Positions 34,623 through 54,632 of a DNA stretch of 64,000 bases are shown here, piece by piece (position 1 is the stretch's first letter; each line of letters opens with the position of its first letter). The DNA comes from a virus (Duplodnaviria; Caudoviricetes). The notes under the pieces were generated by a model. That model ran no database searches. It saw only the letters and a program-made list of their open reading frames with translations, and was not told the DNA's origin. Position numbers and translations under genes: made by a program. The stretch spans positions 32,001-96,000 of IMG/VR virus record IMGVR_UViG_3300037067_015211. One strand, given 5' to 3'.

Positions 34623-37600
34623 CTATTTGTTTTTTGTTAATTCATTGTATTTTTTCATTAGCAATTCTTTGTCCGCGCCTTTAACGTCAAATGTAAACTT
34701 ATAAATCCACTTTGCATTGCCAGACTTAATCACCATATTTTGAAGTACATTTATCTGTTCTGGCAACAAACCTTTAATTGCATCAAAAAAATTACCGCTT
34801 TTAAAAGTCTTAAACAACTTATTATAATCCACATCATAACCTCTTTCAGTGGGTAAAATACCCCTATACTTTTTCATTATTTTCTTAACATCCGGACTTA
34901 ACTCATCATAATAAGAATAAGGAGTTTTAGCAGAATACTTTTTATCTAGCACATCTTTAATCCACCTAGATTCACCCTTTTCAAACTTAGTAAAAATTGA
35001 TCCGGTATTGTGTTCAATATCATTGATTCTATCGATAATATACATTAGCTTTTTATGATCTGTTACAGAAGTATTTTTAAGGTCAATCAAATACTGAGTA
35101 ATAGCTGCCCATCTAGGTCCACCATATTGATAAGCCCAAGGAAGTTCATTAAATACCCTATGTGCCAATTCAAGGGGAATATAATCTCTTTCGCCATTCA
35201 AAATATGATCCGCTTGCTCTTTCGAAATATTTAACTTCTTTGCCAACTCATCTGCATTATTAATACCAGTTCTATTGCCCACATATCCAAAATACATATG
35301 CTCATCATATACCGCCTTGGTAAGATTCTTCACATATTCGTCTTTAACCTCTTCCAAAATCTGATAAGCCACTTGTTTATCTTCATCGTCTAACTGATCC
35401 ATCACAGTAGATAGAGCATAAAAATCATATACTTGTGATGGCTGTAAAGCTAGTCTTTTACGCCATGTATTGTATATCATATTTGCTGACACTTCCCATG
35501 TTTGTGTGGGTTCATAATATTTCTTTGCATCTTCTGGCTTCATGGACTCCGGAAAATCCATTTGTCGCATACCCGGATCCAACTCCAACTCTTCCACATC
35601 GCTAAATTCTTCGTATTCGCTTTTATCCGTTAGACTGTTGCTCTCACGTATTTTTCCCCTAACGAAATCTTCGAATCCTTGGTCATGAATTCCGTATGTC
35701 ATATCGCCCCAGACAAATATAAAATCACCGCAGGCATTCTCGTATCTTCTCAAATCAATCCTACCAAGTGGATGTTCTATTTCTTTATCGCCTTCTCTTA
35801 CCAAATACGCGACCATCCCGCCTCTGGCTATTTTGCTAAACACATATTGTTTCTCGTCCCCATGCATAAATCCAGCCGCTCCGTAGTTTTTTAACTCCTC
35901 GGGCCTCAATGTAAGGCAGGATGTCCATCCCCGGTCCGTGCTCATCCCAGCAATATCTTCCGGTTTATGCGTGAATACGATAAAATGCGGCTGTTGCGAT
36001 TTAATACCACCCTGTAAGCGATCTACAAAAATGGCTAGTAATTCAGGTTGGTCCTTTAGAAGCTTCCCTATGCCTATTTCTCGGCCTGTACGGGCATTTT
36101 GAGCGAGTCCTTGCCGATAATCAACAATTTGGTAACCGTTCCTGAGCAAATGAGATTCCAAGTTCCAAGGCACTTGAATTTTGTCTGCCTTTGGGGTGTA
36201 TGGAAAATATGTCCGCTCTTGCTGGAAGAGCAGCCCCCAAGTAAGTGATTTTGGTCTTTTCTTGGCATATTCTTCCGCCGCTTTTAACTCTTCTTCAGAA
36301 AGTTTGGATTGCTTCTGCCATGTGGTGTAGATAGATGCGAATTTTTTATTTTTTAACTCCTCATATTTTTTCATCAACAATTTTTTATTAGCTCCATTTA
36401 CACCTTCGGCAAAACGGTAAATCCAATGTTCATTGCCAGACCTAATTATTGCATCTTGTAATTTGGATATATTGACTCCCTTAATATCCTTGGCAACCTT
36501 ATAAATTAAAGGCCCATAGAAAAAAAGGTTTCCTTCCTCATCGTCGTTTGCGGTTTTCGCGGTTAGCCTATTTTCTACTATTTTTAGAGCATCTCTTTCG
36601 TCCTTAGTGTATTGACTTACTTCTTTTTTATCACTTTGTCCTTCAATCCTGCCAAAATTATCCAAAAAATATTGTTCACTTGAACGCCATAAATCATTAT
36701 TGCTTACAATCTCCAGCCAAGAATAAGTATTAAGCTTAGTTCCCATAACCTCTAAATTATTATCCTCGATCCACTTCCTTACGAACGGCATATACTCACT
36801 GTTTGGTCTACTATCGGACTTCCCATATACTTGCCAGACTTCATTGCCCCTTACATCAATCGTTACATGAGGCTCATTGGTAGAATCTCTTAAAGAATAT
36901 ATCTCTTTCTCGCCGCTCTCTACGTCCCGCCAATAATTTTCTCCCCCCACACAATGCCCCATCTTGTTGCCTTCTTCAACAAGATCGACATTACTGTGGA
37001 TATTTACCATCTTCATAGACTGGCCATCTACGGTAATTGTTTGGTCTCCTAGATGACCTACGCGGTATTCCTCTACTTTTTCTACGCTGGAACCGCCCGT
37101 ACCAATACGATGCCATTCATAAGAAGAATTAACCGCCTCATCATAAGACATATTTGAAACTTCTGCATATCCAACATCTATATACCAGTCATAAACTTCA
37201 TTTAAAGATTGCCGATTGCTCGAAATGTATCCACCCTTTACCCAGCCAACAAACTTTTCCATTATCGTTTGCATGCCACCTCTATCTGTTGGTGGATATT
37301 GTTTAACTATTCCTTCTATTCTAATCAAATATTTGCTATCATCTGCATTCAACTGTGACTTGTCTTCCTCTATCTCTAACTTTTTGTTGGGAATCAAAAT
37401 TTCCCAAGTCTTCTTGGAATCCTTTTGGGACAGGCCCATTATCTTAGTATAGTTGTTAATAATGAAGTTTGGGTCTTGCTTAATGGCCTTTATGGGTACC
37501 ACGACATTAGCCGGTAGATTAAACTCCTGTCTAACTAGGTCCGCTATCTCCTTACTTTTTACCTGCTCACCCTGCATGGAGTCTTGTAGCCTATCTACTA

Positions 37601-39116
37601 AACCAGCTAATAATTTCTTTGCAAATATTTGCCGTTGCCATGTGGTATGTATCAGCGATCCAGTTCTTTTTTGATATTCATTATCCATCAAAGCAACCGG
37701 TCCCTTATGATATTTTTCCCTACGAGTATTCTCATTCTGTAACTTCTCTTTCCAAAATGAAGTAACAGGATACTCGCCAAAAAATATCGGATCAACAGCC
37801 CCCATATCCCTACCTGACCACGTTGTTCTTACGCGATACGTTCCATCTGGATTAACGGCAAGAATTTGGGCACCCTCTTCAGTGGCATATCCATCACCGA
37901 TAATAATGGCTAAATCAGGGTTATTTTTAGATGTGGCAAATTGTTTGACCTTTTCTTGTCCTTCTCGTTTTTTTTCATAATTGGAATAAATCAATGACGC
38001 TTGTTTTTTGTTTTTCAATTCATTGTATTTTTTCTTTAATAATTTTTTGCCTGCCCCTTTAACATCTTGGGCAAATCTATAAATCCACTCTGTATTACCA
38101 GACTTAATCACAACATCTTGTAATCTGGGTATATCCGCGCCTTTAATATCTTTGGCAAACATATAGATCCACTCTGCTTTGCCAGTTTTAATTATTGCTT
38201 TCTGCAATTTAGATATATCGGCCCCTTTTACATTTTTTGCAAAATAAAAAATAAATTCTTCGTCTTTAGATTTAATTATTTGATCTTGTAATTTAATAAT
38301 TTGTTCTTTAGGTATAAAATCTCCGTATTTAGAAATATAATCAAATGCAAATATTCCTTCTGGGAATATATCATGATATCCCTTTTCGACATCTTCTAAA
38401 GCAAAATCTTGTAAATCCAATATAGTAGCAGTTATTTTATTGCTTTCAGCTAATTTGCTATTAACAAACTCTACAAAATTGTTGTCTTGAATACCGTAGC
38501 ATTCATTACTTCCAACAAAAATAAAATTGCCATTATTATCTCCATATCTCCTAATAGCTACTCTAGCCAATGGGGCTTCAATATTCTTATCGCTCTCTTT
38601 AATCAAATAGGCTACTAACCCACCCCTTTCTATTTTGTTAAATACTTGTTCATGGTGCTCACCGCCCCTTAAATCTACACAAGATTTCCAGTTTCTATCG
38701 GTAGATGATCCAGCTATATCCTCTGGCTTATGGCTAAATACTACCAATAAGTTTTCATTATATTGCTTAGCCTGTCCTTGTAGCCTATCATCAAATAGCT
38801 TTTTAAGGTCTTGTCTATTTTCCCTATTTAAAATCTTGCCTATCCCTATTGGTTGATTTTTGACCTTCTTCTTCGCCAATCCCTGTCGATAATCTACTAC
38901 CTCGAATCCTATAGAATCCAAAAATGCCTGAATCTCTTGAGGCACTTCTAGGGGCTGTTGTGTGGCTGTTTTATAAGGAAAATATGTCCGCTCTTGTTGA
39001 AAAAGCGGTCCCCATGTTAATTTTTTGCTACGCTTCTTGGCCGCTTCTTCAGCCATAGCAAGTTCTTCTTGGGATAGCTTGGCCTTTACTGTTCTTTTCC
39101 AAGTATCGTATATCAT
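34623..39116 (-). CDS. 1497-aa modular protein (putative virion-cargo polyprotein) with duplicated domain, ~28-aa helical repeats and PcfJ-like domain
   Basis: aa ~1-250 repeated from aa ~928 (LTWG.LFQQERTYFPY, HKPEDIAG.STDR.W.SC); repeats FAKDIKGADISKLQDAIIKSG; PcfJ-like EGNKMGHCVG..Y......IYSLRD..N.PHVTI. Confidence 0.8.
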   Translation of the reverse strand: MIYDTWKRTVKAKLSQEELAMAEEAAKKRSKKLTWGPLFQQERTYFPYKTATQQPLEVPQEIQAFLDSIGFEVVDYRQGLAKKKVKNQPIGIGKILNRENRQDLKKLFDDRLQGQAKQYNENLLVVFSHKPEDIAGSSTDRNWKSCVDLRGGEHHEQVFNKIERGGLVAYLIKESDKNIEAPLARVAIRRYGDNNGNFIFVGSNECYGIQDNNFVEFVNSKLAESNKITATILDLQDFALEDVEKGYHDIFPEGIFAFDYISKYGDFIPKEQIIKLQDQIIKSKDEEFIFYFAKNVKGADISKLQKAIIKTGKAEWIYMFAKDIKGADIPRLQDVVIKSGNTEWIYRFAQDVKGAGKKLLKKKYNELKNKKQASLIYSNYEKKREGQEKVKQFATSKNNPDLAIIIGDGYATEEGAQILAVNPDGTYRVRTTWSGRDMGAVDPIFFGEYPVTSFWKEKLQNENTRREKYHKGPVALMDNEYQKRTGSLIHTTWQRQIFAKKLLAGLVDRLQDSMQGEQVKSKEIADLVRQEFNLPANVVVPIKAIKQDPNFIINNYTKIMGLSQKDSKKTWEILIPNKKLEIEEDKSQLNADDSKYLIRIEGIVKQYPPTDRGGMQTIMEKFVGWVKGGYISSNRQSLNEVYDWYIDVGYAEVSNMSYDEAVNSSYEWHRIGTGGSSVEKVEEYRVGHLGDQTITVDGQSMKMVNIHSNVDLVEEGNKMGHCVGGENYWRDVESGEKEIYSLRDSTNEPHVTIDVRGNEVWQVYGKSDSRPNSEYMPFVRKWIEDNNLEVMGTKLNTYSWLEIVSNNDLWRSSEQYFLDNFGRIEGQSDKKEVSQYTKDERDALKIVENRLTAKTANDDEEGNLFFYGPLIYKVAKDIKGVNISKLQDAIIRSGNEHWIYRFAEGVNGANKKLLMKKYEELKNKKFASIYTTWQKQSKLSEEELKAAEEYAKKRPKSLTWGLLFQQERTYFPYTPKADKIQVPWNLESHLLRNGYQIVDYRQGLAQNARTGREIGIGKLLKDQPELLAIFVDRLQGGIKSQQPHFIVFTHKPEDIAGMSTDRGWTSCLTLRPEELKNYGAAGFMHGDEKQYVFSKIARGGMVAYLVREGDKEIEHPLGRIDLRRYENACGDFIFVWGDMTYGIHDQGFEDFVRGKIRESNSLTDKSEYEEFSDVEELELDPGMRQMDFPESMKPEDAKKYYEPTQTWEVSANMIYNTWRKRLALQPSQVYDFYALSTVMDQLDDEDKQVAYQILEEVKDEYVKNLTKAVYDEHMYFGYVGNRTGINNADELAKKLNISKEQADHILNGERDYIPLELAHRVFNELPWAYQYGGPRWAAITQYLIDLKNTSVTDHKKLMYIIDRINDIEHNTGSIFTKFEKGESRWIKDVLDKKYSAKTPYSYYDELSPDVKKIMKKYRGILPTERGYDVDYNKLFKTFKSGNFFDAIKGLLPEQINVLQNMVIKSGNAKWIYKFTFDVKGADKELLMKKYNELTKNK

Positions 39117-39451
39117 GATTTTCGCACCTTCTTCTCTACCGCATTACAAATCTCGTGCGCCTCGTCGTATGACAAACCCATGTGTTTCATAAGCGTTCTC
39201 TCTATCATCTCGTGCAGGATAATCGGAAAATGCTGAGACGAATCAATGTTACCATCTATCCAAATTTCTTTGTCGGGAATAAAGGAGTATCTCTCTCCGT
39301 TACCACCCTCTACGAAATCCATTTCGTACTTTGTCTTTACGGCATCCCCGTCAACAATTTTTATCACAACATCAGTGTCTACGGGAAGGCGATTTTCTTT
39401 CGCTATTTCCTTGATTTTATTTATCATCCAAGTCTTGAAAATCTTGTCCAT
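39113..39451 (-). CDS. Zincin-like metal-binding protein
   Basis: EIWID...ILHEMIER.LM...SYDEAH. Confidence 0.6.
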   Translation of the reverse strand: MDKIFKTWMINKIKEIAKENRLPVDTDVVIKIVDGDAVKTKYEMDFVEGGNGERYSFIPDKEIWIDGNIDSSQHFPIILHEMIERTLMKHMGLSYDEAHEICNAVEKKVRKS

Positions 39452-39596
39452 ATTGATATAATAGTCTATAGAAAAACTATTATATTTTTATGAGATTAAA
39501 AGATATTGGGAAAGATAAAGTACCAGCAAGAGAAGATGACGATCCATTCTTATGGTTCGTCCAAAATTTTAGACGAGAATTTCCAGTAAAGGACAA

Positions 39597-39743
39597 TGAT
39601 GACAAATCAAGAATGCCAAAAGCTAATAAAAGAACTTAGACGGCTAAAGAAATCACTAGATACGCCAGAAAAATCACTGAAATTCTTGGTAGATGCAGGG
39701 ATTTGCGCTAAAACAGGTAAGCTGTCTAAGAATTACCGCTAAA
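39597..39743 (+). CDS. Small hypothetical protein (not in ORF track)
   Basis: AAGGA RBS; MMTNQECQKLIKELRRLKKSLDTPEKSLKFLVDAGICAKTGKLSKNYR. Confidence 0.45.
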
Positions 39744-40364
39744 TCTAAACAAAACCATATTTACATTATGTGTCTCGGGCAACACGCCTACCAACTCTAC
39801 TCCAAATTTTTGTAGCCTATCCAGATTGGGCTGTCCACCGCGCATAAGCAAATTATATGAATCTGGCGTCATGGAAGCCGCTAAATACTTGTATCCTTTA
39901 CCCTTTAACTGTTGCAAATAATTGATAAGCAACTTGGTTACAACGATTCCCCTCTTTACATCCGCCATACTCTTAAGCACATTAAAATTGGCCACGTAAT
40001 GCACTTTACCCTTTCTGGCAGACTTTAGGACATCCTTGTACAATGATTTGATGTTATCGGTCGTATAAAGCTGTATGTCCTTAAATTCGTCATAATCGGG
40101 TGCATTGTCCGTATTGATGAAATCATAGCCGCCTAGATAGCCCACGGGCTTGTTCTCGTCCTTGGCTATGTTAAACACAGCACCCGGCTGTTCCGTGTCG
40201 TCTATAAGGTCGTCCGCTGGCTGGGGACCATAATAGGTAAGGCCATCGCCAAATCCTTGCTCTTCTAACTCGGCTAGTTGATTGGCGGTCTGCTCGTCCA
40301 GTTTGTCTTTAACTTCCTGAACAATGATTTTCGCCAGCCGTCTGAGGTACGTTTGGTAAATCAT
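39726..40364 (-). CDS. GNAT-like acetyltransferase with leader MIYQTYLRRLA
   Basis: IAKDENKPVGY, YVANFNV, RGIVVTKLL..L..KGYKYL, SYNL match GNAT topology. Confidence 0.6.
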   Translation of the reverse strand: MIYQTYLRRLAKIIVQEVKDKLDEQTANQLAELEEQGFGDGLTYYGPQPADDLIDDTEQPGAVFNIAKDENKPVGYLGGYDFINTDNAPDYDEFKDIQLYTTDNIKSLYKDVLKSARKGKVHYVANFNVLKSMADVKRGIVVTKLLINYLQQLKGKGYKYLAASMTPDSYNLLMRGGQPNLDRLQKFGVELVGVLPETHNVNMVLFRFSGNS

Positions 40365-40753
40365 TTACCATCTTCTTTTATTTTTATCGATTTATCAATA
40401 AAATATTTTTTATTAGTAATGTGTGTGCCCCCAAAACTAATTCCCAATAAAATTCCCATTCTTGTTTTCCACTCAGTTAGATACCCAACAAAATCATCAT
40501 ATTTATCGCCAATTGGAGTTGGAATTACATCCATACTTCCAACCGTAGAATAAAAGACTTTCTCTGTAACCTCTTGCATAGTATCGCTAAACCTATTAAT
40601 ATAGGCATCCCACTTACATCTAGCGGGGCTTGATGGGTCACACTTATCCATCGACCTAAACTTTTCTTTTATATCTCTAGCGTTCCAGTCTTCAAAGTTA
40701 AAATATTTTTTTTGTGCTTGTTTTTTTTCTTTCCAATTTTTAAATATTTCCAT
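40361..40753 (-). CDS. Hypothetical protein with leader MEIFKNWKEKKQA
   Basis: GAGG RBS; flanked by a 20-bp direct repeat. Confidence 0.7.
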   Translation of the reverse strand: MEIFKNWKEKKQAQKKYFNFEDWNARDIKEKFRSMDKCDPSSPARCKWDAYINRFSDTMQEVTEKVFYSTVGSMDVIPTPIGDKYDDFVGYLTEWKTRMGILLGISFGGTHITNKKYFIDKSIKIKEDGK

Positions 40754-40958
40754 GTTACCTCACTCCTAAGGTACGTTTGGTAGATCATCTTTACTCTTCT
40801 TAGTAGTGGCCAAATAACGCTTGCTCTTCATTTGGTCAGCAAATTTATTCGCCTGTCGCTCTTCCTTAGTTCTAGTCTTCCACTTACCATGTTCGAATTT
40901 TTGGCTTCCATTCCGCTGAGTCCTATTAGCCATTACATCTCTCCTATAATAGTTGTTT

Positions 40959-41828
40959 TCAGCCTTTTATTCTAATTGATATTTCTACTTCTTTTTTGCA
41001 CTTAGGACAATCAATCAGTTCCTTATCTGTAATCGTCTTGCCATGTAGACCAATCTTTTGAGCACAAAATGGACATCTTATAATGATCTGCCACTTTTCC
41101 TTCTCATTAGATTTAGGCATCGGAGGACACATGTTTTTAAATACATCACTAAAATCAAATGGATTTGACATCATTCGACTTTCAAAATAGTTTTTACTTT
41201 ATCGTAGTCAATGACTGTAAATGTTACTCCGGCAAATAAATTTGTATGCTCATTCCAATGGTCTTCATCATCGTCAGAACAATTAACAATGTATGGACAA
41301 AAGATTCTGTACAACTCTCGTCCATAAACATAATCTATCGCATTATCAAAATGGCCTTGAAATATATCTACAAACTCTCTATATTTCCGATCAAGAAGTT
41401 TTTCTAAAAAACAAATTATTTTCTTTTTTATTTCATCTTTTTTCTTTGTAGTTATGTCTTTGTAATTTTCTAAAAAAGAAAAATCGATATTGCTTATCTT
41501 AAAGTCGTCCGGGAACAACAATATGATTTGTTCGCAGTCACTCATCCTAAAATCTCTCTATCCTGTTCCCGCTCTCAATATCAAGGGCAACTCCATATCT
41601 ACCACCTTCAAATTCTTGCTCTTCTACGGGCCATACATAGTAGGCAAAGCAGAAGTGGCAATACAAATCATAATCATGAATTTCGAATAATTGATGCAAA
41701 TGTCCTGTTTTCATATCAACTACAAGTTTTTTGTCTGTGCCCTCTTTTGCCTTTTCTTTCCATTGACTCCACTTCTTATAGTGCCATTGAGACATCACAT
41801 CGAGAAGTTCAATTGTGGCGTTAGTCAT
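40959..41828 (-). CDS. Hypothetical proteins (40959-41174 Zn ribbon, 41171-41545, 41547-41828)
   Basis: Abutting - strand ORFs. Confidence 0.6.
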
Positions 41829-41906
41829 TGGTGTTGTCCTTTAATTATGTTCATATGTTCCGTTCCGTCAACAAATATTTGCAAGTGCCTACGTTTAGCA
41901 ACAAAA

Positions 41907-41979
41907 TTGCCCGACCAAGACTCGAACTTGGAACACAAGATTCAAAATCTTGCATGTTAGCCAATTACACCATCGGGCA
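41907..41979 (-). tRNA. tRNA-Gln(UUG)
   Basis: Reverse complement TGCCCGA...CAAGA-TT TTG AA-TCTTG...TTCGAGT...TCGGGCA; no encoded CCA. Confidence 0.9.
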
Positions 41980-41983
41980 AAAA

Positions 41984-42055
41984 AGCCCCGAGTGGGAATC
42001 GAACCCACAGTCTCCGATTTACAAAACCGGTGCTTCACCGTTAAGCTATCGAGGC
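41984..42055 (-). tRNA. tRNA-Thr(UGU)
   Basis: Reverse complement GCCTCGA...CCGGT-TT TGT AA-ATCGG...GTGGG-TTCGATT-CCCAC-TCGGGGC-T. Confidence 0.9.
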
Positions 42056-42219
42056 GTATTCTTCATCTTCTCGAAACACACTGCACAAAACATATTGTGC
42101 ATGCGCAAATCAATTTCACTCGCCTTAAATGATTTACCACATTCCTGACAGGTGACATAGATTTTCTTCTTGGTCGCCTTGTCCCCGTATACAAGTTTCA
42201 GTTCCGTGTTGTTGTCCAT
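42046..42219 (-). CDS. Small Zn-ribbon protein between tRNAs (not in ORF track)
   Basis: GAGG RBS; MDNNTELK...CQECGK...CAVCFEK. Confidence 0.55.
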   Translation of the reverse strand: MDNNTELKLVYGDKATKKKIYVTCQECGKSFKASEIDLRMHNMFCAVCFEKMKNTPR

Positions 42220-42259
42220 TTCTGTTCCTCATCATTATGTTGTTGTCACCAATATGATC

Positions 42260-42505
42260 CTACTTCTCTATAAATATTTTAGTCAAATCAATTTGCATGT
42301 CAAGCGCAATTGCTATTTTTAAAAGTTGTTTAATAGTGATTTTGTTGGGGAAGTCACCTAATAGGCGGCAAATGAATTTGTGGCTAACGTTAGCTTTCTT
42401 TGCCAGCTTTCTTTTGGACAAATGTAGTTCATCCATTCTGTCTGATATAGGTTCAGAAATATCAAGGATAAGGTCATAGTATTTTTTGAGAAAGTCTTCT
42501 TTCAT
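42260..42505 (-). CDS. XRE-like HTH protein
   Basis: LSKRKLAKKANVS...ITIKQLLKIAIALDM; paralog of 28177. Confidence 0.7.
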   Translation of the reverse strand: MKEDFLKKYYDLILDISEPISDRMDELHLSKRKLAKKANVSHKFICRLLGDFPNKITIKQLLKIAIALDMQIDLTKIFIEK

Positions 42506-42536
42506 TTTTATATCCTCGCTTTTAGCGTTTGTTTTT

Positions 42537-42609
42537 CTCCGAGGGGAGAATTCGAATCTCCAGTCTACTGATTAACAGTCAGTTGCATAACCAATTATGC
42601 TACCTCGGA
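42537..42609 (-). tRNA. tRNA-Asn(GUU)
   Basis: Reverse complement TCCGAGG...ACTGA-CT GTT AA-TCAGT...TTCGAAT...CCTCGGA-G. Confidence 0.9.
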
Positions 42610-42618
42610 TCTTCAAAA

Positions 42619-42700
42619 TGGATGGTGGTGGATTTGAACCACCGAAGACGGAGCCACCAGATTTACAGTCTGGCCCCTTTGACCACTCGGGCAACCATCC
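42619..42700 (-). tRNA. tRNA-Tyr(GUA)
   Basis: Reverse complement GGATGGT...CCAGA-CT GTA AA-TCTGG, long variable arm, TTCAAAT. Confidence 0.92.
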
Positions 42701-42710
42701 AAACAAATTT

Positions 42711-42788
42711 TGGTAGGACGAGAAGGATTCTAACCTTCGATCCCCGGATTAAAAATCCGGTGCTTTGAAACAACTAAGCTATCGTCCT
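42711..42788 (-). tRNA. tRNA-Lys(UUU), atypical elbow
   Basis: Reverse complement AGGACGA...CCGGA-TT TTT AA-TCCGG...GAAGG-TTAGAAT-CCTTC-TCGTCCT-ACCA. Confidence 0.85.
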
Positions 42789-42909
42789 ATAAAAACGGAT
42801 AGCAAACCAACAATCTCATTTAATCGTGTCCGCAACGAGCCTTGTCCATACACCTATGGGCACTTTCAAGAGCCGAAATGTCAGCTTGCCATCAAGCGGA
42901 CTAACATCT

Positions 42910-42937
42910 AGTATATGCGTGATTTTCAGTTTGTCAA
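42910..42937 (-). promoter_or_regulatory. Promoter of tRNA cluster, TTGACA-N16-TATACT
   Basis: Immediately downstream of a terminator, upstream of tRNA-Lys. Confidence 0.8.
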
Positions 42938-42939
42938 AT

Positions 42940-42967
42940 AAAAAAGCCCGACTTTTTAAGCCGGGCT
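42940..42967 (-). terminator. Rho-independent terminator
   Basis: Reverse complement AGCCCGGCTT-aa-AAAGTCGGGCT followed by a T-tract. Confidence 0.8.
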
Positions 42968-42993
42968 AATATATTTTTTATGATTATTCTACG

Positions 42994-43473
42994 TTATTTC
43001 TTAGCCGCCCCACGCCATACTTGGTCAACATTGGTATTTACCATGCCAGCTTCTTTTTCCTCGTCTTCCTTGCCCTCTATGGCCTCTTCTGGGGCATTTT
43101 CACCACCCTTGGCCTTCCCATCGCCCACAAGGGCCATAATGCTGTCCTGTAGCTCTGTAATCTCATCTGCGGACATTTCTTCGGTCTTTTTCATAAGCTG
43201 TTCAGCAAACGGCAACCATTTATAATAGTTTTTGTTCTCATCGATATGAACATTGGCAATCTTTTCGGCTTCCTTGGGGTCATCCGTATGCTCCATTTCG
43301 ATTTCTATGCCAACTTCAAGGTCTGAGTCGGCTTCAACTTCAGGAATCTCTTCCTTTACTTCTTCGGCCTTTTCTTCTTCGCTATCTTCGGGCTTGCCAC
43401 TATCCTTGTCGCCCTGCCATTGATTCTTTTCCTGCGCGACTCTATTTCTCTTCCAGTTTTCGAATGTTTGCAT
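42994..43473 (-). CDS. DUF5661-like acidic protein with leader MQTFENWKRNRVA
   Basis: LEVGIEIEMEHTDDP..A.KIA..H..E...YY..L. Confidence 0.75.
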   Translation of the reverse strand: MQTFENWKRNRVAQEKNQWQGDKDSGKPEDSEEEKAEEVKEEIPEVEADSDLEVGIEIEMEHTDDPKEAEKIANVHIDENKNYYKWLPFAEQLMKKTEEMSADEITELQDSIMALVGDGKAKGGENAPEEAIEGKEDEEKEAGMVNTNVDQVWRGAAKK

Positions 43474-43500
43474 GATACATTTCCTTTTTAAAGTTGTTTA

Positions 43501-43944
43501 TTACTCTCCACCAAAATATCCCGGGTCTTCCACAACATCACCAATATGATCGTCCAAATATTGACGCGCACTTTCAATGAACTCTCCGACCGTAACACCA
43601 CATACTTTACAATCAGTTGTACCATCTGTGTAAGGATGTCTGCATGGAGTAAAATTGGCCTGTGCATCAGCCAATGCTTTGTTTTCCTGTTCCGCAGTCC
43701 AATCTTCATCGAAAGCTTTTTTCTCAATCTCTTTAGTAAAATCCTTCTGCACCATTGCCGGACTCCAACCAAATGTTGAAGCGGTGCCCGGGAAGTCAAG
43801 ATCAGTTTGCACCAACATATCTTGCCCTGTGTCCAAATCAGTTACAGTATATGTTCCAAAATTGCTATAGCCAAGTTCTATCTGTCCAGCCTTAGTCTTT
43901 TTAGATGCAAGTTTCTTTTGCCGCCAATTTTCGTATGTACCCAT
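43501..43944 (-). CDS. Hypothetical protein with leader MGTYENWRQKKLA
   Basis: AAGGA RBS; VQTD.DFPG.A..FGW...C.H..TDGT.DC..CG. Confidence 0.75.
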   Translation of the reverse strand: MGTYENWRQKKLASKKTKAGQIELGYSNFGTYTVTDLDTGQDMLVQTDLDFPGTASTFGWSPAMVQKDFTKEIEKKAFDEDWTAEQENKALADAQANFTPCRHPYTDGTTDCKVCGVTVGEFIESARQYLDDHIGDVVEDPGYFGGE

Positions 43945-43998: not shown

Positions 43999-44621
43999 TT
44001 ATCTTTTTTTTTCCGCATCCACACATCTAACCAATTCTTCATAATAATGTTGCATGATATCCATTCTCTCGTCCAAAACTACGTCATCCAAATCATCTAT
44101 GTCCACCATCTTACCAGACAGCATTATCTTCCCGTCCTTCTCTTCCTTTATCATCTCGTTGTAGACATATTCCACCGCAGTCTTGTAGACCTTAAATAAC
44201 CGCTCTATACCAACCGACAAAATAATTTGTTCCCGACTCATCCCCTCATGTGGATTAAAGAACTCATAGGCCAATAGGAATAGATCGTCATCTTTCAATC
44301 GGGAGATAATCTCATATTTTGTCATTTCTTAAACTTCTTAAAACACTTTTCACAAAGGAAAATGGGTATGCCAAACCCATTGACTTCACAATATGTTTCA
44401 TCAAAGCCTATTATATTATAACACTTATCGCACTGACTGGAAGCAGAATAATGGATTACGAGTGGGGTCAGAGCCTCCATGATTTTCAAATAAAATTTGT
44501 ATTGTTCGGCCACACTAGCTTTTTCCTTAGGTTCAAAATCGCACGACAACCCTGCCTTTTCCAGTGCAATGGTTAAGTTTTGTAAAACTAGATTAAAGTC
44601 CTCGTCTTTTAGTTTTTCCAC
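43999..44621 (-). CDS. Hypothetical proteins (43999-44325, 44322-44621)
   Basis: Overlapping ORFs. Confidence 0.6.
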
Positions 44622-47600
44622 TATCCCCGCCCCTTTATGCTAAGTTTTATTTCATTTCCGGAAGAACTAAGTTTAATATTTCTGTTGGGCATAACATTCC
44701 AAATCTTTACAATTTGTGCATCTTCAAATAAATGCTCTCCAATATCATCTCCAGAACCAGCCTTTAATCCTTCTATTAAAGCAATTTGTTTTCCAAAATA
44801 ATTGCTTTTCATAAACGTTGCCATATCAGAAGCGACTGTTTTATTATTTCTAATGCCTGTAGCAGACGTTGCTCCAATTTCTTCCCCCGTACATTCACCA
44901 TCATCCCAATGATAAGATGATGGTAAAACATCGCCAATTTTGTTTGTTGTACTTGATGGCAACATTCTAAGCCCATATTGAAGGTTTGGATTTTGGGAAA
45001 CAATGGCAGATGTTTCACTTATTATTTGATTTTTCAAATCTTCTGAAATGTGGCTTGAACCAATTTGTGCTAACCTAACAGTCTTTTTGGCATCCGTGGA
45101 ATAATCTGCGTCTGAATATCCATCACCATCATATTTGTTCTCTTGAGTAACCGGCAAGCCCTTAATATCGAAATCCGTGTAGCCTGTGCCCATACTGACC
45201 ATCTTAGTCTTATATATCTCTTTCAAATCTTTTGCAAACGCTTTCCAAGCCTGTTCTATTTCGGCCTTTTGTTTCTTCATAGCATCCATAGATGTGGTGC
45301 CCATTATTTTCATATCGGGAACATTATAATGATCTTGATACAGCTTTAACCAAGCGTTTAGCAATTGATTGTTGCCGACAATGGCGGTCGATTTTACAAA
45401 CATATCGTGGAACTCGATTGAGTCAAATAACAAATATCTGTCTTCGGCCTTAGATAAAGAGATTGTTCCACCTTCATTTTTAATGGAATACCAGCCAAAC
45501 AATTTGTTCTTACCAGCCGTTTCATTCTCAAAATAATATTCCTTGTCTGGATCTAAGTTGAGCAATGATTTGTATATTTTCATTCTATTCGTAACCGGCA
45601 CTACTACTGGGCTTTCTTGTATGTGGTAGTAAAGTATACCCTGCGATACGGGAATATCGTCTATCTCCCTATACAGGACAGAAAATGCATGATCTGGTCT
45701 TAGATATCCCCTTTCCATAGCCGCTTGTCCAGCCCCGCCAAATTTTTGGCAACAACCGGTTAAGAGTCGTTCTCCTAATACCATGCCAAGAGGATCATCC
45801 TTGCGCAGTATCTCTATACGATATTTGTTGCCATTAACCTCGTATACCTTTTGTAAGGGCTTAATAATGGCCGCTTCTAAATCTGCGAATCCTTCTTGTC
45901 TGGATAATCTATCCACATAATCGTCTATTCTATCAGCATCTTTACCTTCAGAATATTTGTACATCATGTTCTTAAACTTGGACAAATTATTATTTGATGG
46001 CACAAACTCTACACCTTCTTGTATTTTTAATAATTCGGGTATGGTAGGTGTTTCCACTTTCTTTAACTCTTCGTCTATTTTTCTCTTTAATTCCTTGTAG
46101 TCGTGGATAACTATTGTGCCGTCTGCCATTTGCTTGCGAATATCGGCATCGATTTGTTGGCGTTTTTGTGAATAAAATATGGGTAGTTTAGAAGCCGCTA
46201 CAATCAAATCGGGGAAGTTGGAGTAATCGGCCCTGCGTATTACGTAGGACAACACCAGACTGCCAAATTGTTTGTCCCTAGTGGCTTTTTGGAATTGGTC
46301 ATTTTGTAGGTTGACTACGATATCGTGTAGGCTCGTCCCCCGGTTTAGTTGAGCATTATACAGAATCTTTATCTTCTTCTCACCCCCCGTATTTTTGCCC
46401 CCCATAAGGTCTGCCAAGACGCCCATTGCGTCTTGTTGTTTATTGCCGACAATAAACTCTTTTGTCTCTTCCAGTTCTTTTTGGAATAGCTGGTTCTTGG
46501 TAGACTCTTTATTTAGGTTGTTTTCCGGCGCGGCCATATTATTGCTCTTTAGGATTTTTGCCACGCTGTTGTATAGGTTGTTTTTGTGTTGCCAAGATTT
46601 TCTGTCATCTGATAGTGGTAAATAGTTTATCGCCCCATTGAGGACTAATGGTTCTTCCTCTATGGATGGTTTATATTTAAAAATTTGTTCCGGATTAGTA
46701 AGAATTGCTGCGCTTGCGGCCTCAATCATGTTCTTTTTTACATCTTCATCTTTAAACTTTTTTGTTCTTGTCAAGAAATAATTTGCATTTCCTATATGTG
46801 AATAGTAAATGGATAAAACTTTTTGGGTGTCGAAAGTCATGGTAAACTTGCCAACCGGGAGAGTAAAGTTACTTTCTAGTTTGGCATCAGTGGCTTCTTT
46901 GAAATAATTGTTCATAAAAAAATTTTCCGAAAATGCTTTGTATCCATCGTCGTCAATTATTTTTTGTAGTTGGTCTTGAGTAAGCAACTCACTATATACT
47001 GCGGTAGATAAATTAATGTCACGCCTAATTAGCCCATGAAGCGTTAATACAAATTTATCGCCAATATTATATTTTTGTGCAATCTTATAGAGTCTGTAAA
47101 AATCAACGCCATCTAATTCCTTATAATAACTGTTAATGGTAGAAAATATTGCATCAATATCTATAGAGCCTTTAACGGCAACTTCAATGATCTTGTAAAA
47201 GAAATCCAAGCTTGTCATTTGATTGGTTACAAACTCATTTATTACTATACTAAAAAAATCTGGGTCGTAACTGGAAACATAATTTAATAAATTGTCGTCA
47301 ATTATTTTTAGCACTTGTTTGTGATAATCATCACCAAATTCATGTATTTGCGTTTCCGTATTTTTTAGCTGTATTAATAGACTAACAACATTCTTAAAAT
47401 ATACACCCTTTTTCGCCAAAGTCTCTAAAATCTTTTGCTTTAGTAGTGGTACATTAACCTTAACATCATCTTCGTACAATAAAAGTAATATTTTTGTTAG
47501 TCCGCGTATAGAAAGATATCGTGATGTTTCAAGCATTTCATTAATATTGCTCTCCGCGTCCTCCGTTCTTGCCATAGTCTCAACAGATTGCCCATCTGTA

Positions 47601-48913
47601 TAATATTCCGCCCAGCCCGTTTTCTTCAGTAGTTGCCAAATTTTGTTTGCCGTCTCTCGTGGGAATTTCGACAAATCCATTTGCGGTACAATATGAGATG
47701 CAAAATATTCCAGAGATTCCTCTTGCCCGGGCTTTTCCAACAATTCCAATATTCTAGGCATCACCTCTATAACACCTATGTCAATGGCAATGTAGTCTTC
47801 CCACTTTTTAAGTACATCAGGAAGAATGGGCAATATTTCTTCGTCTGGCAGTTCAAACAAGAAGCCAGCATACCTCATGGATAAAATATTTTTATCGTCA
47901 GTGGTCAATAGATATTTAATAATCTGCGAGTAATCTCCGCCATTTTCCTTTATCTCGTTAAATAGGGATAATAAATACCGATATGCATATGCGGTTGCTT
48001 CTAAATTAATTGTTGATATATCGTCTGTTGTAATAGGTGTTTGAGAAAAGTGTTTTACCAATGCTTTAAAAACAGTTTTGTTGGGGTCAAATTTTGACTC
48101 CCCGGGGGCAAAAAATAAACTCAACAAAACACGAACCCCCTTTTCTTGCAAAATTTTTACCCATAGATCGGCATATCTATCATCATCATCAGCGTCTATT
48201 ATATTCTGAAACATTCTACTAATGGCAGAAGTACGCCCAAAAGTAATAATAATATCCGTCCCCGCATAGAATTTCCAAAGATTATTAATCAAATCAAATG
48301 CATTGTTCACATACTTTTGATACACAAAAAGTAACTTCAAGAAAAACAAATAATTAGCTTCTGATAATATTTTTTTCATTTCTTGTTGCGCTTCTGTAAC
48401 AACCTCGGCGGGGTTGCCGATAATGCTTAAAACTTGTGGCTCGTTCAATTTTTCCGCGCTATTCACCTGCACCAGAATATAATGTGCCAACTCCTTTTTA
48501 GACTGAGGGGAAATCTGAATTTGATGCTGATCTATTGCCTTGGCAAGAGCAAGCAAATTTGTTGGAACATGTCTATTATATTCCATAAACCTAATACAAT
48601 ATTCAACAAACTGCCCTTGATATTCTTGTGGGATTTGGGTAATTCTAGCCGCCATAAGCATAGTATCAAAAAACCAATCTGCATCTCTATCAACAAACTT
48701 TTCTTTTAAAATCTCTGCACAATGTTCATCAAAATATTTTTTAATCGCCTTTTTATATTCTGGATCCGTGTTCCCACCCCCAAATGATGGATACATTTTT
48801 GTTGCATATTCAGCAATCATTTTTTGCGCCTCTGGCGTATTGATAAGACTCGCACCTTCTTCTTGCGCATGCCTACTAAGCTGAATCTCTCTATTGTTGT
48901 TGCTAAGTTCCAT
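44621..48913 (-). CDS. 1430-aa protein: helical N-terminus, conserved Cys-motif domain, C-terminal ART-like module
   Basis: Paralog of 48926-52939 (LADLMGGKNTGG...LRKDDPLG.VLGERLLT.CCQK.GGAGQ.AMERGYL...LLFDSIEFHDMFVK...TVRLA), with an extra ~150-aa tail. Confidence 0.8.
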   Translation of the reverse strand: MELSNNNREIQLSRHAQEEGASLINTPEAQKMIAEYATKMYPSFGGGNTDPEYKKAIKKYFDEHCAEILKEKFVDRDADWFFDTMLMAARITQIPQEYQGQFVEYCIRFMEYNRHVPTNLLALAKAIDQHQIQISPQSKKELAHYILVQVNSAEKLNEPQVLSIIGNPAEVVTEAQQEMKKILSEANYLFFLKLLFVYQKYVNNAFDLINNLWKFYAGTDIIITFGRTSAISRMFQNIIDADDDDRYADLWVKILQEKGVRVLLSLFFAPGESKFDPNKTVFKALVKHFSQTPITTDDISTINLEATAYAYRYLLSLFNEIKENGGDYSQIIKYLLTTDDKNILSMRYAGFLFELPDEEILPILPDVLKKWEDYIAIDIGVIEVMPRILELLEKPGQEESLEYFASHIVPQMDLSKFPRETANKIWQLLKKTGWAEYYTDGQSVETMARTEDAESNINEMLETSRYLSIRGLTKILLLLYEDDVKVNVPLLKQKILETLAKKGVYFKNVVSLLIQLKNTETQIHEFGDDYHKQVLKIIDDNLLNYVSSYDPDFFSIVINEFVTNQMTSLDFFYKIIEVAVKGSIDIDAIFSTINSYYKELDGVDFYRLYKIAQKYNIGDKFVLTLHGLIRRDINLSTAVYSELLTQDQLQKIIDDDGYKAFSENFFMNNYFKEATDAKLESNFTLPVGKFTMTFDTQKVLSIYYSHIGNANYFLTRTKKFKDEDVKKNMIEAASAAILTNPEQIFKYKPSIEEEPLVLNGAINYLPLSDDRKSWQHKNNLYNSVAKILKSNNMAAPENNLNKESTKNQLFQKELEETKEFIVGNKQQDAMGVLADLMGGKNTGGEKKIKILYNAQLNRGTSLHDIVVNLQNDQFQKATRDKQFGSLVLSYVIRRADYSNFPDLIVAASKLPIFYSQKRQQIDADIRKQMADGTIVIHDYKELKRKIDEELKKVETPTIPELLKIQEGVEFVPSNNNLSKFKNMMYKYSEGKDADRIDDYVDRLSRQEGFADLEAAIIKPLQKVYEVNGNKYRIEILRKDDPLGMVLGERLLTGCCQKFGGAGQAAMERGYLRPDHAFSVLYREIDDIPVSQGILYYHIQESPVVVPVTNRMKIYKSLLNLDPDKEYYFENETAGKNKLFGWYSIKNEGGTISLSKAEDRYLLFDSIEFHDMFVKSTAIVGNNQLLNAWLKLYQDHYNVPDMKIMGTTSMDAMKKQKAEIEQAWKAFAKDLKEIYKTKMVSMGTGYTDFDIKGLPVTQENKYDGDGYSDADYSTDAKKTVRLAQIGSSHISEDLKNQIISETSAIVSQNPNLQYGLRMLPSSTTNKIGDVLPSSYHWDDGECTGEEIGATSATGIRNNKTVASDMATFMKSNYFGKQIALIEGLKAGSGDDIGEHLFEDAQIVKIWNVMPNRNIKLSSSGNEIKLSIKGRG

Positions 48914-48925
48914 ATAAGCTTCCCT

Positions 48926-51900
48926 TTAGTTTTTACTCAGCTCTATTTTTTTCTTCTTTTTCTTCTCGCCAATGAAAAATTTTTGCACTTCAGGAGCGGC
49001 CACTTCTTTGGCAATACTAAGAACTATATCTTTCTTGGCCAACCTCACCGTATGTTTAGAGTCCAAACTATAATCGGCATCTGAATACTGATATTTGCCA
49101 GTCGTGTTTACATACCTATTCTCCGGCGTTTCAGGCAACCCGTCAATGTTAAAATCAGTATATCCAGTGCCCATGCTGACCATACGACACTTATACATAT
49201 CACGCAAATCTTTTGCAAATAATTTCCATGCCGTCTCAATCTGCTCTTTTGTCTTGTCCAGAGAAATATCCTGCCACTTTAAATCGCCCGTATTTATTGT
49301 CTTACCCGATTTATAGTACAAATAGTTTGCCGCCAAACTTTGGCCTTCTTGTACATCATCTTCATCATCGTCGTCTTTGACGAACATATCGTGGAATTCA
49401 ATGGAATCGAATAGTAAATAGTTGTCTGCCGGTTTAACCAACAAAATAGCCTTTTTGTCTTCATTCCACATTAAACCGTACCAGCCTATAACACTCTCGC
49501 CGTCTATATTTTCGTCAAAGTAGTATTCTTTTGTGCTAAATGCCCTGTAGGGAGATATTTCCAGCTTAGACAATTCTTGATATTTTTCAGTATCCTTGTC
49601 AACTATAACCAATTTGTTAGTCGGGTTCTCTGTGTGATAATAAAGTATCCCCTGTGATACTGGTATTTCGTCGCCCTCTCTATAGAGTACGGAGAATGCA
49701 TGGTTGGGGCTTAGATAACCACGCTCCATAGCAGTCTGCCCCGCACCACCTAGCTTTTGGCAACACGATGTCAATAGCCTTTCGCCCAATACCAACCCAA
49801 GCGGATCGTCCTTGCGTAAAATTTCAAGCCTATATTTGTGGCCATCTACAGTGTACACCTTTTGCAAGGGTTTAATACTCGCCATCTCTACATCGCCAAA
49901 AGCAGTGTCCCGAGAAAGCCTTTCCACAAACTCGTCAATAGATTCCTTGGAACTTTCAGAGTATTTATACATCGTATTTTTGTGTATCGATAATGGCGTA
50001 TCGGCTGTATCTACGGCAACATTTGTGTCCACCTTCAGTAGTTCCACCACTGACGGCAATTTAACCTTTTTCATTTCCTCGTCTACTAGCTTTTTTAGCT
50101 CCTTGGGGCCACTGATTTGTATTAGGGCATCTTTGTCCTGTTGCTTCAAATCCGCTTCAATAGAAGCCCGTTTCTGGCCCATATAGACAGGAATCTTAGC
50201 CGCCGCGCTAACTAGATCGGCAAATATTTGATAATCCGCCCGTCTAACCAAATAAGACAACACCAGATTGCCAAATTGTTTGTCCTTTGTAGCGTTTTGA
50301 AAGTTTTCACCCTGTAATGCTACGGCTATATCGTGCAAGCTTGTGTTTCGCTTTAACTGGGCATTGTAGACAATTTTTATTTTCTTCAACCCACCCGTAT
50401 TTTTGCCGCCCATAAGATCCGCCAGTGCATCTATTGGGTTTTCGCCGACGATATCCTTAATCGAATTCGCCTCATCGTTAAATAGTTTGTTCTTTACATC
50501 TTCGGAATAGAGATTAGACTCTGGTTTAGGCACATTTAAATTATTGATTTTAGTCGCCAAATTTATTGTATCGACGACCTTAGATTTTTCAAACCATGCC
50601 TCTCTGTCGTCATATTCATTGAAGTTTACAGAGTAGTTTGCAAGATTCGCCAATAATTTTTCCCTTTCTGGCTCATCCAAATTCCAACTATCAAGTACAT
50701 ATATAGGATCATGATTTCTAATGCCTGCTTTTAATATGAGATTTTTTTCCTCGAAAGAAAGCGTGGCAACCCCAGATGATTTTCGATAATAATTACCCCA
50801 TAAAGGTGAATGAAAGAAATTCTTGTCAAACAGCGCAGATTTTAATAGATTAGTTTTGTTTATATTTATGGAAAATTCACCATCTTTACTTCTTATTTCA
50901 TTGCCATTGCCTTCTGGGCCAGTCAATATAACATATGCAAACTTTTTGTCGAAAGAATATTTATCGTATTGTTCCTGAAGAAGATCATTATTCAAATCTT
51001 TGTATACCGGTTGTCTGCCGCATCTTAGCGCAGAATTAATAATCGTGGCTATAATGCCTTTTTCATATTTTTCATATATGTCAAATATTCTTGACCAATC
51101 TAGTTTGATAATGGGTTCTTCTTTATGCGTTGTTAATTTAATAAAATATATCGTACCATAACTTTGTCCTGCGTAATCGTCTAATAGTTTGTAAAACTGA
51201 TCTTCGGTCGGGACAAAATTATTGGCTTGCAAAAAATCGATAAAATCATTCATGTTACTATTTGGCGATACGGATATATTGTCAATTATAGTTAAAATCA
51301 TTTTTTTGTTAAATTCGGCACCATAAATACCTTTAAATTGTGACGACATACTTATTTTATCTTCGGCATCGTCTCTTGACAAATATGTTATCACCGCATC
51401 CTTCAAATCAATGTTACTTTCTCCCGCCCTTATTTTATTGAACATTAGCGCAAGAAAATTCGACAAACTATCTGTATTTATCCTATTGATGTTTTCCAAG
51501 ACGGGAGAATACATATCTTTTTCATTCTCTTTTGATACGCCCATAACAAGGGCAACATTTCTTCTGGTAATTAAAGTGGCATATGCGCTCAAATCATTGT
51601 CTTTACAATATTGCATGAATGATTTTGTTGTATTTTCATCAGAAAAAATATCGCGAGACTTTAATGTTTCTCTAATTACTTTGTAAAAATAATTTTCTTT
51701 TTCTGCTATCTGGGCAGACTCTAATATCTTTTTATATTCCTCGTCCGTAAGCATAATGTTTGTATGGCGCATTATCTGATCTAATATAGCATTAATGTAA
51801 TCAGACAACTCGCTGGTAGAAAATTTATCTATTGCATAGTAAAAAGAATACAGGATACTACTCCACAATGCTTTTACTAACGTCAAATCAAGCTTTAATG

Positions 51901-52939: not shown

Positions 52940-53360
52940 TTTTTTTGATCCTATCAATTGCCTTGACCAAATCCAATATCGAAAACCATCGTATATCGTT
53001 CTTCTTCTCGTCGAACCACCACGTACTCAAATTACTTTGCTTCATATCCACCCACGCCAAATAGTGCAAACTAACCTCACACAAAAGAGCGTCCCAGTTG
53101 TCATTTTTTCCGGGCAACATGAATACATCTTCTTTTGTTCTAGGTGGCTCCATGTTCCCGCTTAAAAGAAAATGATTAAGCGCAATCCACACACTCCCCT
53201 GTATCGTCACAGGATCGCCCAAATCACTAGATATCCCATCATAGAATATTTGCATATCGTAATACAAATCGACACATTTTTCAACATACTCCATAAACTT
53301 ATTAAAGTCTTTGTAGCAAATAAGTTCCGTGATCTTCATGGGGATACTATCCGTGGACAT
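52923..53360 (-). CDS. Hypothetical protein
   Basis: AAGGA RBS; overlaps the next gene. Confidence 0.6.
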   Translation of the reverse strand: MSTDSIPMKITELICYKDFNKFMEYVEKCVDLYYDMQIFYDGISSDLGDPVTIQGSVWIALNHFLLSGNMEPPRTKEDVFMLPGKNDNWDALLCEVSLHYLAWVDMKQSNLSTWWFDEKKNDIRWFSILDLVKAIDRIKKNETKQ

Positions 53361-54604: not shown

Positions 54605-54632
54605 ATTATATGTACAATTTGCCCGTTGTCAA
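54605..54632 (-). promoter_or_regulatory. tRNA promoter TTGACA-N16-TATAAT
   Basis: Consensus hexamers within the 3' end of the zinc-finger gene, ~20 nt upstream of tRNA-Arg. Confidence 0.8.

Follow-up and report, generated by a model that had tools for sequence, protein, structure and literature searches.

A multi-module phage protein assembled from tag-initial genes and the possible role of its tag in virion loading

Introduction

How does a phage come to encode a single polypeptide in which the same short leader appears five times, each time ahead of another module, and what could such a leader be for? These questions are raised by P0001, an open reading frame (ORF) of 1497 amino acids (aa) located on the minus strand at positions 34623-39116 of a 64-kb stretch of Caudoviricetes DNA, hereafter the window, which covers bases 32001-96000 of the 212,568-bp IMG/VR virus record IMGVR_UViG_3300037067_015211 (38% G+C, estimated 95% complete). 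In a preliminary description made from the letters alone, it was proposed that once-separate cargo genes had been fused in frame to give a shuffleable effector cassette, the product of which is cut apart by the head protease. Our analysis leads us to propose that the five modules were probably drawn from this phage's pool of genes opening with one short tag, and that the chain was assembled, and rebuilt in relatives, through recombination within the tag-coding DNA, for which there is good support in the sequences compared. The best explanation overall, whose chances we judge to be even, combines this shuffled chain of modules with a role of the tag as a loading signal and with delivery by the virion.

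A recurring tag delimits the modules of P0001

The pattern I[YH]x[TN][WY][KRQE][KRQ] occurs in P0001 at aa 2, 376, 489, 929 and 1214, one per module boundary, giving five matches vs 0.004 expected from 20,000 shuffles of the protein with a pattern that was fitted after the matches had been seen. Across all six frames of the window, this strict form of the tag is confined to P0001. The recurrence of the leader at module boundaries initially reported is thereby confirmed with one correction, aa 928 being a serine and the fourth tag beginning at I929.

Four unrelated module types and a solenoid are combined in this 172-kDa chain. Modules 1 (aa 2-229) and 4 (aa 929-1163) are paralogous, with 49% identity over 241 columns (E 1e-75), and modules 1, 3 and 5 share, as first noticed, an end made of a 28-residue helical repeat and closed by a KKY[NE]EL cap (KKYNELKNK at aa 362, KKYEELKNK at aa 916 and KKYNELTKNK at aa 1488). 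These solenoid tails match one another with 57-70% identity (68% between aa 317-373 and 871-927, and 70% between aa 329-370 and 1455-1497). The PcfJ-like domain expected in module 3 was recovered by Pfam as the sole domain match on the whole of P0001 (PF14284, aa 695-775, 39.8 bits for a gathering cut-off of 25), and the single PHROGs match, a family of unknown function, falls on this same region. Module 5 does carry the YGGPRW...EHNTGSIF motif, which is the signature of a large family. The tag itself consists of two aromatic residues spaced three apart ([IT]-[YF]-x-[TSN]-W), followed by a basic stretch and an alanine. Each junction leads from a module end, often a HEAT/ARM-like solenoid closed by KKYNEL, by way of K-[QF]-[AG]-S into the following tag, the methionine of which is lost or replaced. 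Upstream of the internal tags, no clear ribosome-binding site was found for an internal translation start, and possible start codons are present at tag 2 (TTG) and tag 5 (ATG) only.

For an ORF containing such repeats, an assembly chimera or a decaying pseudogene has to be considered. Indeed, a 91%-identical paralogue elsewhere in the genome splits the module-5 part into short unitigs. However, a single 24-kb contig of run X1, which is probably the sample from which the record was assembled, spans positions 35397-39700 without mismatch and therefore bridges all four P0001 junctions, while a contig from X2, an independent landfill run, crosses the module 3/4 junction, also with zero mismatches. 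Moreover, the frame stays open for 4.5 kb, and junctions of the same kind are present in the paralogue P0030 and in the sister protein P0002, both described below. The P0001 sequence is thus no assembly artefact, and a chimera or pseudogene is extremely unlikely. An apparent joint from position 39113 to position 34626, seen in contigs and first taken for a deletion of the whole ORF, proved to be the internal junction of P0030.

The tag opens unrelated genes across the genome

Among the 354 ORFs of at least 80 aa, 14 contain [YF]x[TSNI]W within their first 12 residues vs ~2 expected. With corrected starts, the number of tag genes rises to about 16, including six consecutive ones at window positions 34623-43944 (Table 1) and two in the structural region, at genome positions 183599-184393 and 204577-205311, the latter immediately ahead of the portal gene. 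Unrelated proteins of this phage hence share a short N-terminal leader, found in about 16 genes and in five internal copies. Its aromatics ([YF]-x-x-W) occupy positions 3/6, 4/7 or 5/8, and an alanine closes the tag after the basic stretch in 16/16 N-terminal and 4/5 internal copies. For the 112-aa tag gene adjoining P0001, a function as small metallopeptidase was considered on account of its HEMIERTLMKH motif and dropped, no family match being found.

Fusion and shuffling through the tag-coding DNA

The search of the phage's own genome returned four paralogues of modules 1, 3 and 5 (P0031, P0032, P0030 and P0027), each of them tag-initial. One is of module-1 type (genome 97966-99438, 58% identity, start MIYKTW), one of module-3 type (genome 8603-10465, 37% identity, start MNIYRSW) and two are of module-5 type, namely P0030 (genome 99799-101844, 91% identity, start MIFNTW) and a more distant copy (genome 111750-112811, 56% identity, start MIYNTW). 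P0030 is itself a chain, in which module 5 and its solenoid are followed by KKQGS, the tag LIYDTWKRK and a sixth, unrelated module. At the nucleotide level, its junction is composed of the P0001 3' end, 12 nt (CAAGGATCATTA, coding Q-G-S-L) and 22 nt identical to the P0001 5' tag, downstream of which the two sequences are unrelated; this layout accounts for the apparent contig joint mentioned above.

A reordered chain is encoded on a Logan contig by the sister protein P0002, which is ~58% identical to the matching modules of P0001. Its N-terminal module is module 3, starting with MIFKTWQRQIFA, which matches the internal LIHTTWQRQIFA of P0001, followed by a solenoid, KKQAS, the tag AIYKTWQRS, module 1 and a second solenoid. 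The contig first matches genome positions 102212-101790 with 83% identity, corresponding to a conserved 269-aa gene upstream of P0030 and to the initial 19 nt of the tag. Still inside the tag, at nt 420-426, the match changes to the internal module 3 of P0001 (75% identity). Since this switch takes place inside the tag and behind one conserved gene, a single syntenic site holds different module chains in two related phages. Stand-alone and reordered homologues of the modules therefore both exist. The former, together with the P0030 junction whose tag is nucleotide-identical to the P0001 start, speak for an in-frame fusion of once-separate genes, and the latter, with its breakpoint inside the tag, for a shuffleable cassette. 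Fusion and shuffling via recombination in the tag-coding DNA are thus well supported by these sequence comparisons.

These breakpoints, the 22 identical nt shared by the tags of unrelated modules and an orphan tag copy might also indicate that the tag persists chiefly because it serves as a recombination site in the DNA, providing microhomology for cassette exchange without any function in the protein. However, the tag codons vary synonymously (ATA TAC, ATT TAT or ATC TAC; ACT TGG, AAT TGG or TCT TGG), and as most tags differ at synonymous sites with their residues kept, selection acts on the peptide. Besides, a tag at which recombination occurs may still have a role in the protein, as has been suggested for the T-even internal-protein loci (PMC3012670). 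We hence consider a pure recombination site very improbable.

The orphan tag copy reads ATG ATC TAC CAA ACG TAC CTT AGG on the minus strand and lies 35 nt upstream of the MEIFKNW gene, out of frame with it. Its sequence differs very little from the start of the next gene (window 40364) and has the appearance of a scar left by recombination.

Table 1. Position of P0001, its modules and junctions, and the neighbouring tag genes in the window
Feature	P0001 residues	Window positions	Strand	Basis
Multi-module ORF P0001	1-1497	34623..39116	-	open frame, contig support
Tag 1, MIYDTWKRTVKA	1-12	39081..39116	-	helix 2-12, pLDDT ~66
Module 1 core, alpha/beta, DIAGxSTDRxWxSC motif	13-255	38352..39080	-	jumbo-phage homologues
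Helical-repeat solenoid 1 and cap	256-369	38010..38351	-	repeat matches, model, cap
Junction KKQAS and tag 2, LIYSNYEKKR (L = TTG)	370-386	37959..38009	-	motif
Module 2	387-481	37674..37958	-	homologue searches empty
Junction RTGS and tag 3, LIHTTWQRQIFA	482-499	37620..37673	-	equals P0002 N-terminus MIFKTWQRQIFA
Module 3 (PcfJ-like at aa 695-775, window 36792-37034)	500-870	36507..37619	-	PF14284
Solenoid 3 and cap	871-922	36351..36506	-	repeat match, cap
Junction KKFAS and tag 4, IYTTWQKQS	923-938	36303..36350	-	motif; X2 contig bridge
Module 4, module 1 paralogue	939-1200	35517..36302	-	sequence match
Low-confidence linker and tag 5, MIYNTWRKRLAL	1201-1224	35445..35516	-	pLDDT < 50, aa 1201-1219
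Module 5, all-alpha, YGGPRW...EHNTGSIF	1225-1445	34782..35444	-	motif, model
Solenoid 5 and cap	1446-1497	34626..34781	-	repeat match, cap, model
Tag gene, 112 aa, MDKIFKTW, ATGA-coupled to P0001		39113..39451	-	tag
Tag gene, 212 aa, MIYQTYLRRLA		39726..40364	-	tag
Tag gene, 130 aa, MEIFKNWKEKKQA		40361..40753	-	tag
Orphan tag copy MIYQTYLR, out of frame with following gene		40765..40788	-	sequence
Tag gene, 159 aa, MQTFENWKRNRVA		42994..43473	-	tag
Tag gene, 147 aa, MGTYENWRQKKLA		43501..43944	-	tag

Predicted structures and homologues of the modules

Two constructs of P0001, aa 1-400 and aa 1190-1497, were modeled with AlphaFold2 using family alignments. In the first (mean predicted local distance difference test score, pLDDT, of 89), tag 1 forms a helix (aa 2-12, pLDDT about 66) ahead of an alpha/beta core (aa 43-256) and of the solenoid (aa 257-351), after which the cap, KKQAS and tag 2 all belong to one long exposed helix (aa 357-397), along which the pLDDT drops from 92 to 63. 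In the second (mean pLDDT 84), the score stays under 50 over the linker and tag 5 (aa 1201-1219), while module 5 is all-alpha. The modeled tags thus look exposed and outside the continuous folded domains, rather than buried in them as would have told against the preliminary proposal: tags 1 and 2 are helices predicted with moderate confidence, and tag 5 lies in a segment of low confidence.

The module-1 model was searched by PDB Foldseek, VIA wide and BFVD, and that of module 5 by PDB Foldseek and, by shape, in the ESM Atlas. The solenoid resembles HEAT/ARM repeats (Z 7-8.6), and the match of the module-1 core to GNAT/HAT1 is marginal (Z 6.0); beyond these, no clear fold emerged from the searches. 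With the module-1 model, BFVD returned uncharacterised jumbo-phage proteins only, and the structural match to A0A2L0V045 of phage Atu_ph07 reached an E value of 8e-14. The ESM Atlas feature search with module 5 gave no usable match; with the module-1 family, the nearest named Atlas cluster has 21% PcfJ members, and an hhalign comparison of this family with the PcfJ region of module 3 was non-significant (probability 0.7%). A complex prediction pairing the solenoid (aa 250-375) with tag 1 (aa 1-35) scored 0.02 and is used here neither for nor against any interpretation.

Regarding the distribution of the modules, related-locus searches with the whole of P0001 or with the module-1 alignment, and a word-index search with module 1 alone, returned nothing, while a degenerate DNA pattern for DIAGxSTDRxWxSC identified 67 metagenomic viral loci. 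The module-1 family comprises uncharacterised proteins of the Erwinia, Dickeya, Lu11, RsoM2USA and Atu_ph07 jumbo phages, in which the domain is usually N-terminal in proteins of 350-800 aa, with several copies in some genomes. Of note, six module-1 matches, probably representing four gene copies, are present on the 199-kb viral contig IMGVR_UViG_3300011005_000048 (53% complete), among them the closest outside homologue of module 1 (40% identity, N-terminus MNKFNQLYNLIMEEL). The module-5 core belongs to no Pfam family, and its profile matches 1577 clusters at 50% identity, with proteins ranging from 134 to 3468 aa; some of them also have LRV or HEAT repeats, and one protein of 2263 aa contains three module-5-type modules in series with the same N-terminal segment before each. 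In these proteins (P0034-P0180), the YGGxxW...IDHxYDL[QE]HNTG domain, a candidate new domain family, is often N-terminal behind a T4-like leader. Long PcfJ-containing homologues also hold ART-PolyVal and SLT domains. For module 2, no homologue was found in own-genome and Pfam searches, and Pfam gave nothing above cut-offs for module 2, module 5, the extra modules of the paralogues or the small tag genes.

A possible virion-loading signal

In phage T4, the capsid-targeting sequence (CTS) is MKTYQEFIAE (PMC8442874); its residues 4 and 7 direct the protein to the prohead core, while cutting by gp21 requires residues 8 and 10 (PMC9026906). As for the T-even internal proteins, they are described as diverse anti-restriction proteins with only this sequence in common (PMC3012670). 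In other phages, the relatives of both module 1 and module 5 begin with M-x-[FY]-x-x-[FWY]…Φ-x-E and then A or L, for instance MRATEFLIEAL, MKTFKTFILEEL, MNFRQFLEAFG and MKFHQFLEVFG, and in the module-1 alignment the tag stands exactly where 30 homologues have leaders such as MRATEF-IIE-AL and MSFKTF-LLNE-KL. Two module-1 homologues are found in virions. RsoM2USA ORF132 (76.64 kDa, N-terminus MKTFKQFLNTLMEA) is among ten virion bands identified by mass spectrometry (PMC8504454), and Atu_ph07 gp394 (N-terminus MQYTDLIEAL) is represented in the virion proteome by 18 peptides, for a coverage of 41% (PMC6102473 supplement). The status of these modules as cargo, asserted in the preliminary description, thus finds indirect support in the alignment of the tag with T4-CTS-like leaders and in these two virion proteins.

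By analogy, the tag may be this phage's counterpart of the T4 sequence and would load otherwise unrelated proteins into the prohead; the 172-kDa chain would then enter the virion and reach the host cell with the DNA, acting as a multi-effector 'polyvalent' protein. That the tag is a virion-loading signal is the best-supported interpretation, with a likelihood which we place at even or slightly above. Alternatively, P0001 could be a cytoplasmic multi-domain protein that is never packaged, its tag serving as an interaction or localisation helix, for example one binding the membrane or a common partner from phage or host. The amphipathic and basic character of the tag helix, the replication and nucleotide metabolism genes around P0001 and the failure to find a protease (see below) are consistent with this proposal. 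However, it leaves unexplained the presence of the tag in place of T4-CTS-like leaders in two unrelated families, as well as the occurrence of module-1 homologues in virions, and we consider it unlikely.

Several observations nevertheless weigh against loading by the tag and delivery of the chain with the virion. Firstly, the neighbours of P0001 are helicase, HNH, exonuclease and radical-SAM genes, located ~100 kb away from the capsid and portal genes. Secondly, the virion evidence is limited to the module-1 family, through homologues at ~30% identity, and the tag could be merely the first helix of each domain, as it is predicted to be helical with a pLDDT of up to 87 for aa 11-20. Thirdly, no recognised effector domain was found in any module, and neither module 1 with its solenoid nor module 5 with its solenoid gave a clear PDB fold match for the core folds. 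Finally, S77, S78, ClpP, S49 and S21 proteases gave no match in this 95%-complete genome (the S21 search having no positive control), whereas S77 is present in 3/3 complete jumbo genomes with module-1 homologues examined, and the tag leaders end in [KR]-x-A with neither a Glu nor an [LI]-x-E or Φ-x-E site.

Is the chain cut by a head protease?

If P0001 were a true polyprotein, the prohead protease would cut at every tag and release five cargo proteins, of ~44, 12, 50, 33 and 32 kDa for cleavage after the alanine. Nearly every tag closes with a small residue followed by K, Q, S or L; each internal tag also comes directly after small residues ([AG]-[SN]); the tag end aligns with the E of the Φ-x-E site in T4-type leaders; and tag 5 lies in a flexible linker. 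Moreover, processing of this kind is known from T4 internal proteins and from the ejection proteins of giant phages (PMC9026906, PMC5694885). However, besides the empty protease searches reported above, in which S77 (PF03420) gave no match even at E <= 1, no recognisable protease was found in the portal-to-capsid region, tag 4 ends in S instead of A, and an uninterrupted helix is predicted at junctions 1 and 3. In addition, the profile match of the 294-aa major capsid protein (genome 197512-198396) starts at residue 13 and thus leaves no room for a long propeptide. Phages with a capsid protein built without a long propeptide often mature without a protease.

Cutting by the head protease, as originally proposed, is therefore not supported by the searches for S77, S78, ClpP, S49 and S21 enzymes or by the tag, which is devoid of a Φ-x-E site, and the polyprotein hypothesis as well as cleavage into five proteins appear doubtful to us. 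Either the tag loads proteins uncut or an unrecognised protease cuts after the alanine; were the chain cut, the likeliest site would be after this conserved closing residue, by a protease not yet recognised. In the portal-to-capsid region, a 1162-aa zinc-ribbon protein (genome 198982-202470) is encoded between the capsid gene and that of the 531-aa portal protein (genome 202513-204108).

Other features of the window

At higher window positions, also on the minus strand, two adjacent giant ORFs of 1430 and 1343 aa (window 44621-48913 and 48926-52957) have no Pfam match and one weak PHROG match (E 0.0006). Beyond them lie a 296-aa protein strongly matching C2H2 zinc fingers (window 54606-55496; PF13894, E 2e-20), which is unusual for a phage, and an RRXRR/HNH-like protein (window 59190-60182; PF14239, E 1e-31) adjoining a DEAD-box helicase (window 61047-63002).

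Significance and comparison with known systems

If the tag is a loading signal, the proteins injected by an uncultured jumbo phage could be listed from sequence only; with this phage and the sister contig counted together, such a list would comprise ~16 genes and three multi-module chains. Recombination within tag-coding DNA would provide a simple evolutionary route to multi-effector proteins. Two widespread families of unknown function would be linked to virions, and T4-like targeting leaders would extend far beyond the relatives of T4. Like the T4 sequence, which already serves this purpose, a short portable loading tag would also be useful for packing phage heads with foreign proteins.

The closest parallel is found in the T4 and T-even internal proteins (IPI-III and Alt), which likewise combine a short N-terminal leader, having its key aromatics three residues apart (positions 4 and 7 in T4), with otherwise unrelated and fast-evolving proteins, and whose genes are swapped as cassettes; in other phages, moreover, modules 1 and 5 have homologues with T4-type leaders. 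In contrast, the leader of the P0001 phage is basic, ends with an alanine and contains no Φ-x-E, no S77 being found, and it recurs inside ORFs at module junctions. To our knowledge, such a recurrence has not been described for T4.

Polyvalent proteins (PMC5512222) similarly gather several unrelated domains in one giant phage polypeptide, for which delivery with the DNA and possibly later processing were proposed, delivery being for P0001 an inferred property only. Indeed, PcfJ-containing relatives of module 3 hold ART-PolyVal and SLT domains. However, Pfam finds no metallopeptidase, ART, SNF2 or methylase domain in P0001, the modules of which are divided by a repeated tag, with tagged stand-alone genes in the same genome. 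With neither a Φ-x-E site or S77 protease nor hallmark effector or peptidase domains, P0001 is a member of neither the T4 CTS class nor the polyvalent class.

The ejection and inner-body proteins of phiKZ and SPN3US also form multi-copy paralogous virion-internal families with conserved N-terminal propeptides (PMC5694885), but they are encoded by separate genes, a T4-like protease cuts them at [AS]-x-E, and no homology to P0001 was found. As for RsoM2USA ORF132 and Atu_ph07 gp394, they share with P0001 the module-1 domain (~31-33% identity), N-terminal and followed by a helical region, yet they are single-module proteins with a leader of Φ-x-E type, from phages having T4-like head genes; for RsoM2USA, a prohead protease is annotated (PMC8504454). 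Tentatively, and with a likelihood clearly below even, the P0001 tag may represent a new capsid-loading code, either protease-free or relying on an unrecognised protease, with strung modules released as separate injected effectors and with CTS-like leaders marking the module-1 and module-5 (1577 clusters) families as virion-delivered effectors across jumbo phages.

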